A stretch of DNA of 58,966 nucleotides from Escherichia phage vB_EcoP_phi367, in sequence record PV189406.1; one strand, given 5' to 3'. This document shows positions 27,001 through 30,000 of the stretch, piece by piece (the stretch's first letter is position 1; every line of letters starts with the position of its first letter). The position numbers are program-made.

Positions 27001-30000
27001 TCTGCCGTATACGCCAGTCTGCGTGGTAAAACCCTCACGGGCAACGGTGCGCAGTGGCAGAAGGTGTGGAAAGAGTTTGTTGAGGACGGAGGTAAAACCG
27101 GCTGGTTTAACATGGGTGACCTTGAAGGCCAGCAGAAGGAAATGGATCGCCTTGTATCGCTGGCGAAGGGAGGATGGAAAGGCCAGAGTATCGGTGCATG
27201 GAATTCGTTCCTTAACCTTGTCGAGGATGCCAACGGGGCGGTTGAAAACGCTCTGCGTCTTTCTGCCTATAAACACGCCCGTGATGCCGGTTTGTCACGC
27301 CAGCAGGCGGCGTCTCTTGCCAAAAACATGACGGTGAACTTTAACCGTCGTGGTGAGCAGGGAGCGCTGATGAACTCGCTGTACATGTTCGCCAACGCCA
27401 GCATTCAGGGGACCGCAAACCTGGTGAGAACGCTCGGACATCTTAATGGCGACGGGCCGTTACTGGAGCGCCTTCGCTGGAAGAATCTCAATGTACCGCA
27501 GAAAATCGCGCTTGCAGCTGTGGGAGCGGGTTATCTGCTTGGCTCGCTTAACCGCAGTGTTGCGGGGGAGGATGATGACGGGGTTAACTGGTATGACAAG
27601 GTGCCGTCTCATGTGAAAGAGCGTAACCTCGTCATTATGAAATCGGTGTTCGGGGGCAAGGCCGGAGAGTACTGGAGTATTCCTCTGCCTTACGGGTACA
27701 ACGTTTTCTTCCTGCTCGGGCATACCGCTGAAGGTGTGGCGGCGGGTGACCTGACGGCGTCCCGTGCTGCCGGTAATGTTGTTGGTGGTGTGCTTGGTGC
27801 ATTCAGCCCGATTGGCAGTGAGACGTCGGAAACACTGTCCGGGGCATTGCTGAAAAATGCAGCGCCGACCATTCTGCGTCCGTTTGCGAACCTTGCCATG
27901 AATGAAAACTTCATGGGGGCGCAGATTTACCAGGAGAACATGCCGTTTGGTACACCAAAACCTGACAGCCAGCTGGGAAGACGTTCAACGCCAGAAGCGT
28001 ACAAGGCGTTTGCATCCTGGCTGAATGCGTTCTCAGGTGGCAGCCAGTACCGTTCAGGCGCGGTGGATATCACACCGGAATCGCTGAAATACTGGGTGGA
28101 CTATATCTCTGGTGGTACAGGGCGCTTCATTTCCAAAACCACGGATGCGGCGGTGAAATCGCTGAACGGTATTGATATACCGGAACAGCAGGTGCCTTTC
28201 CTGGGGAAAATTTCAGGTGAGGTGATGCCGTATGCTGACCAGCAGAAGATGTACGACCGGATGACAGAGGTTGCGCAGTATCACGCAGAGCTGAAGAGTC
28301 TGACCGGCGCAGAAAGAACGGCGTTCATTGACGAGAACAACGGAAAATTGTCGATGAACGGGCTTATGCAGGATACCCGGAAGAGACTGAAGGATTTGCG
28401 TAAACAGCGTGATGCCATTTACGCCGACAGTACTCTCAGTCTGGCGCAACAGTCGGCGATGGTGAAATCGGTAGAGCGGGATATGAAAATTGCCGTGGAT
28501 CGGTTTAACCGCGAGTACAACAAAAAAGTGGGAGTGGATTAACAGAAATGGCCCCGTACGGAAGTGCGGGGCTAATGTGATTGGGGAGGGTGAGGATACC
28601 TGACACATCAGAGGTGGCGAGGGATTCCTCCCTTGCAGAGGTCTTTCTTCGTTATCAGTGCCGTCACAATGACGGTAATACAGAGATGAGCAGGGTGATT
28701 AACATCGCCTTTTGCTGCTTTCATTGCATTTCTCCCGCGATAGCTCAGGCGTATTTGTCAATATGCAGAAATATTGATGAACGAATGACGGTAAATACCC
28801 TACCCAGAAAATTAACGTAAATTCACATCGTAAACTTGCGTTAATTATCTGAAATATATACTTAAATCCCCTTAAATCTTTGGGGCGCTATTGGGGCAAA
28901 GTGTGGTTGTTTGGGGCATATTTGGGGCAAAAAAGAACGTATAAAGAACGGTGTAAAATCGATTTCTTTATGGTCAAAATGAGGTCTAACATATTGAAAA
29001 GTATATGCTCTTGGACGATCTTCGGTAATTCTGTGTTTTTAATGCTTCATGGTTTCAACATGTCTAAGGATATGGTTTATCATTTTGAAAAATATAATTT
29101 TATTTCATCCTCCTGGTCACTTTGGGGCACGTCTGGGGCACGGGCATTAAGGACATTATTCAACATGGCAACTTGAGTCACGCTGCACTCAGGCATCCAT
29201 GCACCATAAACATTGTAGACCATGCTGGCGCTGGAGTGCCCCATCTGTGACGCAATAAATGTCGGGTTTGCTCCGGCAGATAAAGCCCAGCACGCATAGG
29301 TATGGCGTGACTGATACGCTTTACGGGATCGGATACCCGCTCTTTTTATTGCTGAATCCCATGTCGCTCCGATGGAGCTTACCGCGTAGTTAATACCCGC
29401 CTTGTGATTCTTGCGAACGATTTGCGGACAGAAAACAAAAGTGCACTCGTGCAAAATTGTTCTTCCGTACTCGCGTAATTTAACAGTGATCTGATGCTGC
29501 CTGCCAAGACGAGTAAGCATCGCCTGGTTTTTAAGTGCTTCAATTGCTGGTGCCAGAAGATGTATAACCCGGTTAGTGCCTGCGTCAGTCTTTGGTAGCG
29601 TAAAATCACCTATTTTTGTAAAATTTCTTCGCACTGTTATCGTGCCAGCTTTCAGGTCGATATCCTCCCATGCAAGTGCGGCAATTTCACCGTGTCGCAT
29701 CCCTGTAAAAACAGCCACTGTCCAGAGGTTTTTGGTCTGTTGATGATGGCAGGCATCAATGAGACGGCTAAACTCATCTCTGGTCAGTGGATCCGGCACT
29801 GGTTTTGATTTCCTCAGCGGTGTTATTGAATTAAACGGGTTTTTCTCCAGATACCCGTTTTCGGCGGCAAAGCTGAACATTCCGGCTGTTGTTGTCATGT
29901 AATAGTTCACTGTGGGTACGGTTCTTCCTTTTCGGGACGTGCTGGTTTTCCTGCTTCCCTTTTCCCCGGTCAGTAAATCTTTCCTGATAAACAGCAGATC

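Follow-up and report, generated by a model that had tools for sequence, protein, structure and literature searches.

The closest described systems are those of the Shiga toxin (Stx)-converting phages of the 933W and Sp5 types, for which it is established that the attachment site sets the place of phage insertion, the gene wrbA, and with it lysogen typing and prophage excision. Sp5 integrates at wrbA (PMC2669165), a 7-bp attachment (att) sequence has been given for wrbA prophages (bioRxiv 10.1101/2024.03.06.583675), and the same 7 bp are annotated as attachment site in the records AP004402 and AP005153. Concerning the recombinases, the IntBPP-1 subgroup has an arm-binding (AB) domain of the DUF3596/PF12167 type, and a Stx2a phage integrase has been named as a putative member (Smyshlyaev et al. 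2021, PMC8138268). Here we analysed a DNA stretch of 58,966 nucleotides from Escherichia phage vB_EcoP_phi367 (PV189406.1), hereafter the window, and in particular the region 3' of its integrase gene, int, where a first reading made from the sequence alone had proposed a phage attachment site (attP) with arm-type repeats. The segment from about 28877 to 29140 is very likely the attP of a 933W-type Stx phage, lambda-like in its action, whose repeats are putative arm-type sites of the integrase (Int); taken by itself, the assignment of attP and its core is virtually certain. The finding in this form is already known, since GenBank annotation and published work cover where attP lies, its 7-bp core and wrbA as its target.

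Between positions 28300 and 30800, Escherichia phage vB_EcoP_phi315 matches the window with 100% identity, and numerous Stx1- and Stx2-converting phages do so with 98-99%; the int product has 98.6% identity over 444 amino acids (aa) with the Int of 933W (NC_000924.1). These sequence matches identify the window as that of a short-tailed 933W-type Stx phage. Its integrase gene is the following:

29080..30390, - strand: int, encoding a tyrosine integrase (436 aa if read from the ATG common to relatives).

An alternative GTG start at 30414 gives an open reading frame (ORF) of 444 aa. In this longer ORF, Pfam recognised the arm-binding domain Arm-DNA-bind_2 (PF12167, E 8e-26, aa 15-78) as well as a Phage_integrase domain (PF00589). 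Judged from its type of AB domain, Int probably belongs to the IntBPP-1 subgroup. A sequence search of the PDB with Int found no solved relative of the AB domain; its matches were restricted to other tyrosine recombinases, in their catalytic and core-binding domains.

Lysogen genomes locate the attachment site. On the int side of the prophage, the match to the window begins at 29048, directly adjoining wrbA; on the far side, it ends at 29064, adjoining the wrbA 5' flank and ymdF. We built a four-way alignment of attP (the window), the bacterial site attB (the empty wrbA of K-12) and the two prophage ends, attL (strain E2855) and attR (strain 2013C-3033). The sequences read CATG-GTTTCAA-CATGTC in attP, CATC-GTTTCAA-TATGTC in attB, CATC-GTTTCAA-CATGTC in attL and CATG-GTTTCAA-TATGTC in attR. 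Because the flanking bases (G or C on the left, C or T on the right) segregate with the parental arms, the exchange is confined to GTTTCAA. The core thus comprises:

29052..29058, + strand: overlap (crossover) region GTTTCAA, 7 bp, identical in attP and in the attB of wrbA.
29045..29051, + strand: candidate left core-type half-site CTTCATG, an imperfect inverted repeat of the right half-site.
29059..29065, + strand: candidate right core-type half-site CATGTCT, from sequence and alignment.

The inverted-repeat match between the two candidate half-sites is short, being limited to CATG, and their counterparts in attB are GCCATC and TATGTCC. The sequence-only reading had placed the core of a candidate attP between two clusters of repeats, with attP immediately 3' of int as in lambda, and had named prophage junctions elsewhere in the genome as evidence that would speak against it. 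The lysogen junctions map to 29052-29058, within the AT-rich segment that separates the clusters, and the int stop codon (29080-29082, - strand) lies close by. That reading had also held that attB could not be deduced, which is true of the window alone, whereas the databases identify it: the comparison with the E. coli chromosome that had been suggested finds GTTTCAA in wrbA, at nucleotides 44-50 of the gene (codons 15-17). Of the two prophage ends, attL consists of the 3' part of wrbA, the overlap, the P' arm and int, and attR of the P arm, the overlap and the 5' end of wrbA; attL keeps the P' arm because this arm adjoins int, as in lambda.

Some further observations concern the host gene and the genomes that carry the site. 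Integration swaps wrbA codons 1-17 (MAKVLVLYYSMYGHIET) for 11 phage codons, MINHILRHVET (window 29048-29083; L003 1958-2536), and the ATG of the new hybrid gene overlaps the int stop codon (ATGA). The Prokaryotic Genome Annotation Pipeline (PGAP) still calls a 192-aa hybrid wrbA, the product of which is probably inactive because the predicted protein has lost the N-terminal strand of native WrbA together with its SMYGH loop. Uninterrupted attP copies with phage genes on both sides also occur inside the chromosomes of E. coli 111, 112 and PNUSAE145590 (L096, NZ_CP028685.1 3460045-3468080), where they may reflect tandem prophages, and in separate replicon records of 50-63 kb, which are probably excised phage circles assembled as replicons.

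On both sides of the core, the + strand carries a short repeat, found as exact TTGGGGC at 28880-28886, 28891-28897, 28911-28917, 28922-28928 and 29122-29128 and as CTGGGGC in a sixth copy at 29133-29139. The sequence-only reading had described six repeats, four in the same orientation on the left and two inside the 3' end of int, and these stand with slightly corrected coordinates. As for their sequence, the heptamer YTGGGGC is present in all six, but the literal form TTTGGGGC in only four, since the bases preceding the successive copies are T, A, T, T, T and C; the eighth base is A in five copies and G in one. The six copies form three pairs with start-to-start distances of 11 bp, which a repeat search grouped as a single 22-nt family. 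They provide the following candidate sites, with the offsets of the YTGGGGC centres counted from the core centre (29055):

28880..28887, + strand: P-arm candidate arm-type site 1, TTGGGGCG, at -172.
28891..28898, + strand: P-arm candidate arm-type site 2, TTGGGGCA, at -161, 11 bp from site 1.
28911..28918, + strand: P-arm candidate arm-type site 3, TTGGGGCA, at -141.
28922..28929, + strand: P-arm candidate arm-type site 4, TTGGGGCA, at -130, 11 bp from site 3.
29122..29129, + strand: P'-arm candidate arm-type site 1, TTGGGGCA, at +70, within int codons.
29133..29140, + strand: P'-arm candidate arm-type site 2, CTGGGGCA, at +81, 11 bp from P' site 1.

Over the whole window, the heptamer is not more frequent than expected (6 matches vs ~10). 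Its clustering is another matter: a 270-bp stretch holds six YTGGGGC copies on one strand, no stretch of this length in 300 first-order Markov simulations held more than three, and a Poisson estimate for such a cluster, with correction for every position and for both strands, is ~2e-6. The DNA between the two clusters (28930-29121) has a G+C (GC) content of 30.7% against 49.8% for the window, in agreement with the AT-rich segment noticed from the sequence alone. On the P' side, the pair overlaps the int codons for A-P-D-V-P-Q. On the P side, the copies are embedded in a longer repeat:

28877..28938, + strand: two tandem 31-bp units with one TTGGGGC pair each, from alignment.

Two copies of this 31-bp unit are found here and in AP005153 ('g'), against three in Stx2 phage I (AP004402, 'gg'; L001 1468-1537). 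The 'g/gg' repeat arrangement was reportedly annotated in 2003 by Sato et al. in J Bacteriol. The full-text literature that was searched, which did not include the 2003 'g/gg' papers, contained no description of arm-type sites for the phage Int or for the IntR of the Rac prophage.

An inverted copy at 29236-29243 (TGGGGCAC; GTGCCCCA on the + strand) was considered as a seventh site and rejected: the M-G-H that it encodes is a conserved part of the catalytic domain, and not all relatives possess the copy, for which coincidence of coding is the most likely explanation.

The motif and its geometry recur in relatives (31-78% identical) that use other cores or hosts. We compared Klebsiella phage RCIP0098, phage HannyBb and the Rac-like prophage Stx1_699, whose integrases are, respectively, 67%, 57% and 68% identical to the phage Int, together with the Rac prophage of K-12, whose AB domain is 44% identical. 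RCIP0098, HannyBb and Stx1_699 each have one TGGG(G/A)CA pair with 11-bp spacing at the 3' end of int and another pair on the opposite side; in K-12 Rac, the int-side pair is likewise present, and GGGGCA occurs three times on the opposite side. The offsets are -137, -126, about +69 and about +80 in Stx1_699, and -154, -135, -124, +63 and +74 in Rac (counted from its 26-bp att identity block). Across these relatives, the P' pairs fall between +63 and +81 and the innermost P pair between -137 and -124, with a P-to-P' spacing of 196-200 bp (196 bp in RCIP0098 and HannyBb, 200 bp here). The cores themselves differ: Stx1_699 has a 21-bp duplication, Rac has 26 bp in ttcA, and the present phage has 7 bp in wrbA. 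The reading of the repeats as P and P' arms, proposed before any comparison, gains support from this recurrence of motif, pairing, orientation and core distance.

A wider sample from IMG/VR gave a similar picture. The 80 int relatives retrieved (68-100% identical) carried, without exception, the pattern TG[C/T]CCCA-N4-TG[C/T]CCCA at the 3' end of the gene, and, starting from the motif instead, 67 of 120 sampled exact TGGGGCA-N4-TGGGGCA matches lay at the 3' end of a same-family int in the expected orientation. In the GC-rich phage L202, whose PF12167 integrase shows no more than 31% identity, TTGGGGCA pairs are found at the 3' end of int and again 170 bp downstream (1837-2026); no DUF1233 gene, the family of the excisionase discussed below, was detectable in this single locus. 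By contrast, Pseudomonas phage 5400 and Ralstonia phage YO375_1, which also possess PF12167 integrases (33-34% identical), showed neither TGGGGCA pairs nor clear two-arm repeats. YO375_1 (Int 34% identical) does have CTGGCAAA repeats at the int 3' end, beside a tRNA gene (L095 2300-2400), a hint that different members of the wider PF12167 family may use different arm motifs. The use of distant PF12167 integrases as a covariation test was dropped, the sample being too thin. Some IMG/VR contigs contain three or four TGGGGCA heptamers with 11-bp spacing and no same-family int within the fetched flanks (L158 5944-5984; L148 7022-7051); these arrays could be P arms on the attR side or an unrelated use of the motif.

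Taken together, these comparisons make it fairly probable that TGGG(G/A)CA, in same-orientation pairs spaced by 11 bp, is the shared arm recognition element of a broad PF12167 (IntBPP-1-type) clade, with constant positions near +70/+81 and -135/-125 that do not depend on core specificity. The P' pair, being part of the int reading frame, would then dictate the conserved (A/V)P-x-(M/V)-P-(Q/H) tail of Int. No account of such an element was found in the literature searched. The clade with this arm code may include 933W, Rac, the Klebsiella phages and at least one GC-rich phage, namely that with the 31% identical Int.

Beside int lies the gene of a potential partner in excision, and the DNA between the P-arm sites and the core contains several candidate accessory sites:

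30443..30742, - strand: xis, excisionase of the DUF1233 family (PF06806) according to Pfam, the next ORF upstream of int.
28932..28950, + strand: direct repeat AAAGAACG, two copies spaced by 11 bp and immediately on the core side of the P-arm sites; candidate excisionase site.
28987..28999, - strand: TTTCAATATGTTA, similar to the consensus of integration host factor (IHF) with one mismatch, at about -62 from the core; weak candidate.
29007..29026, + strand: block GCTCTTGGACGATCTTCGGT (also given as GCTCYTGGACGATMTTYG and GCTCTTGGACGATCTTCGG), candidate accessory site between the P-arm sites and the core.

Homologues of xis adjoin int in the relatives too. The two AAAGAACG copies are a candidate site for excisionase (Xis) or a host factor, and passed no conservation test. 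Matches to the IHF consensus were no more frequent than expected by chance across the window, with one single-mismatch site in attP. The block at 29007-29026 is kept in Klebsiella phage RCIP0098 and in Stx1_699 despite their differing cores, is absent from HannyBb and K-12 Rac, and is likewise a candidate Xis or host-factor site.

The TTGGGGCA repeats are likely to be arm-type sites of Int, a putative assignment against which several observations weigh. In 131 of 132 loci, a DUF1233-type xis is found together with int; the IHF and Xis sites proposed for this attP are weak candidates; the four P-arm copies do not amount to four independent events, since they arose partly by tandem duplication of the 31-bp unit; and the motif is not universal to the PF12167 family, given its absence from Pseudomonas phage 5400 and Ralstonia phage YO375_1. 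Because nearly all loci carry both genes, co-occurrence does not tell which of the two proteins, Int or Xis, is the binder: the motif goes with either of them, and direct repeats every 10-11 bp would also fit Xis filaments, as is established for lambda X1-X1.5-X2. The repeats might then be sites of the DUF1233 excisionase, or of Xis with a host factor, with the true Int arm sites elsewhere and attP and core unchanged. We consider this unlikely. The motif occupies both arms, whereas in the lambda-type systems known to us Xis sites are on the P arm only. The repeat search found no other family common to both arms at arm-like distances, so that a heterobivalent PF12167 Int would be left without arm sites. 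The AB domain is the most conserved part of Int among relatives (71-78% identity vs 45-65% for the core-binding domain), whereas Xis proteins share no more than 31-51% identity although the motif does not vary. Finally, phage L202 has pairs on both sides and a PF12167 Int without a detectable DUF1233 gene. All these points favour Int as the binder.

One may also ask whether the repeats have any DNA-binding role. The P-arm copies belong to a unit of variable copy number, so that the left cluster might be a recent tandem duplication, and the right pair is coding in most relatives, where it yields the recurrent Int tail (A/V)P-x-(M/V)-P-(Q/H) (AP.MPQ/H peptide), so that it might simply reflect a conserved C-terminal peptide. 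However, in a comparison of 15 int lineages with >5% divergence, third-codon positions are 99% conserved in the heptamers and 63% upstream of them, and the 4-nt spacer varies freely (40-80% conserved). Moreover, the int-side pair of K-12 Rac is non-coding, since it lies downstream of the intR stop (L092 1472-1490, the coding sequence being 1501-2736), and the heptamer recurs in non-coding DNA ~200 bp away, on the other arm, in six separate lineages and at a constant distance from the core. The constraint therefore acts on the DNA; the Rac pair in particular largely refutes an absence of binding role, which we regard as extremely unlikely. A function in transcription instead of recombination, with the repeats as operators of a phage or host regulator that controls int read-through or the expression of a Hok/Gef remnant, could find an argument in the strong conserved hairpin (28805-28851) and in the remnant itself, both located just past the P arm. 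Nevertheless, a promoter and terminator scan of 28500-29300 revealed no signal above chance and an Rfam search of 28300-29400 no match, the genes beyond the P arm differ among relatives that keep the motif, and the fixed distance between motif and crossover fits a role in recombination. An operator function thus appears very unlikely.

Under the assignment of the repeats to Int, a lambda-like mechanism can be proposed. Int would be heterobivalent, its catalytic and core-binding domains acting on the CTTCATG and CATGTCT half-sites that flank the overlap and its N-terminal PF12167 domain binding the TTGGGGCA heptamers, each pair of which would be exposed on one helix face because of the 11-bp spacing. 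The 31%-GC DNA between the arms would probably be bent by IHF and, during excision, also by the DUF1233 excisionase. With the arms folded back by such bending, Int protomers would bridge arm and core sites and form an intasome able to capture a bare attB. One P-arm pair is probably enough, since relatives have only one and the 31-bp unit is present in two or three copies among the wrbA phages.

Other features were observed in the neighbourhood. Beyond the P arm, a 38-aa ORF at 28620-28733 (- strand) has a weak Pfam match to Hok/Gef (E 1e-4); its counterpart is annotated as a Hok/Gef family protein in related records and is frameshifted or incomplete in one genome. The hairpin at 28805-28851 has 22-nt arms and a 3-nt loop and, as - strand RNA, a folding energy of -20.1 kcal/mol (z-score -5.0). 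Relative to AP004402 and AP005153, two of its base pairs are altered, one from A-T to G-C, a compensatory change, and the other from G-U to G-C. The hairpin is placed ~230-275 nt beyond the int stop and outside the P arm, a position like that of lambda sib/tI, and also falls within the upstream region of the Hok/Gef remnant. On the other side of attP, in the early region, the ORF at 31389-31787 (- strand) contains a tandem codon repeat (31516-31686) encoding VQPVQPVQPVQPVQPVQ. In a related lysogen, a DUF1627 protein is annotated downstream of xis at a position similar to that of this ORF, a correspondence by position alone.

The arm-site assignment leaves the understanding of 933W/Sp5-type phages unchanged, and adds modestly to it a testable set of putative Int arm-type sites with a geometry common to Rac and Klebsiella phages. 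This set could help to delimit prophage ends automatically and to design attP mutants. If the shared arm code is true, it would represent a sequence rule for locating both ends of such prophages, and it would mean that the integrases of this clade acquired new targets through exchange of their core specificity, with a single arm code retained throughout.

In comparison with known systems, there is essentially no difference from the attP of 933W, Sp5 and Stx2 phage I, which have the same 7-bp site and the same wrbA junctions; Stx2 phage I differs by its three 31-bp P-arm units instead of two and by the sequence distal to 28879. With the IntBPP-1 subgroup, the phage Int shares the type of AB domain; the study that defined the classification (PMC8138268) deals with proteins only and gives no arm-site sequences. 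The att of Rac IntR/XisR (K-12, ttcA) involves an Int of the same clade and a DUF1233 Xis, with GGGGCA repeats on both sides. It differs by its ttcA core with 26 bp of identity, by an AB domain only 44% identical and by the location of the int-side pair outside the coding sequence.

Lambda offers the more distant comparison. There, attP has a P-O-P' arrangement with Int arm-type, IHF, Xis and Fis sites and spans about -150 to +80 (Landy's reviews); the span here is about -175 to +85. Unlike lambda, the phage has an arm-binding domain of the PF12167 family and the putative arm motif TTGGGGCA; all six sites share one orientation and are paired, with four (or six, or two) on P and two on P'; the P' sites lie within the int coding sequence; IHF and Xis sites are so far candidates only; and the target is inside a protein-coding gene, the 5' end of which is replaced. 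As in lambda, attP is directly 3' of int with xis upstream, a 7-bp overlap is flanked by imperfect inverted core sites (candidates only in this phage), and a putative arm motif unrelated to the core sequence is repeated on both arms, with neighbouring sites 10-11 bp apart.

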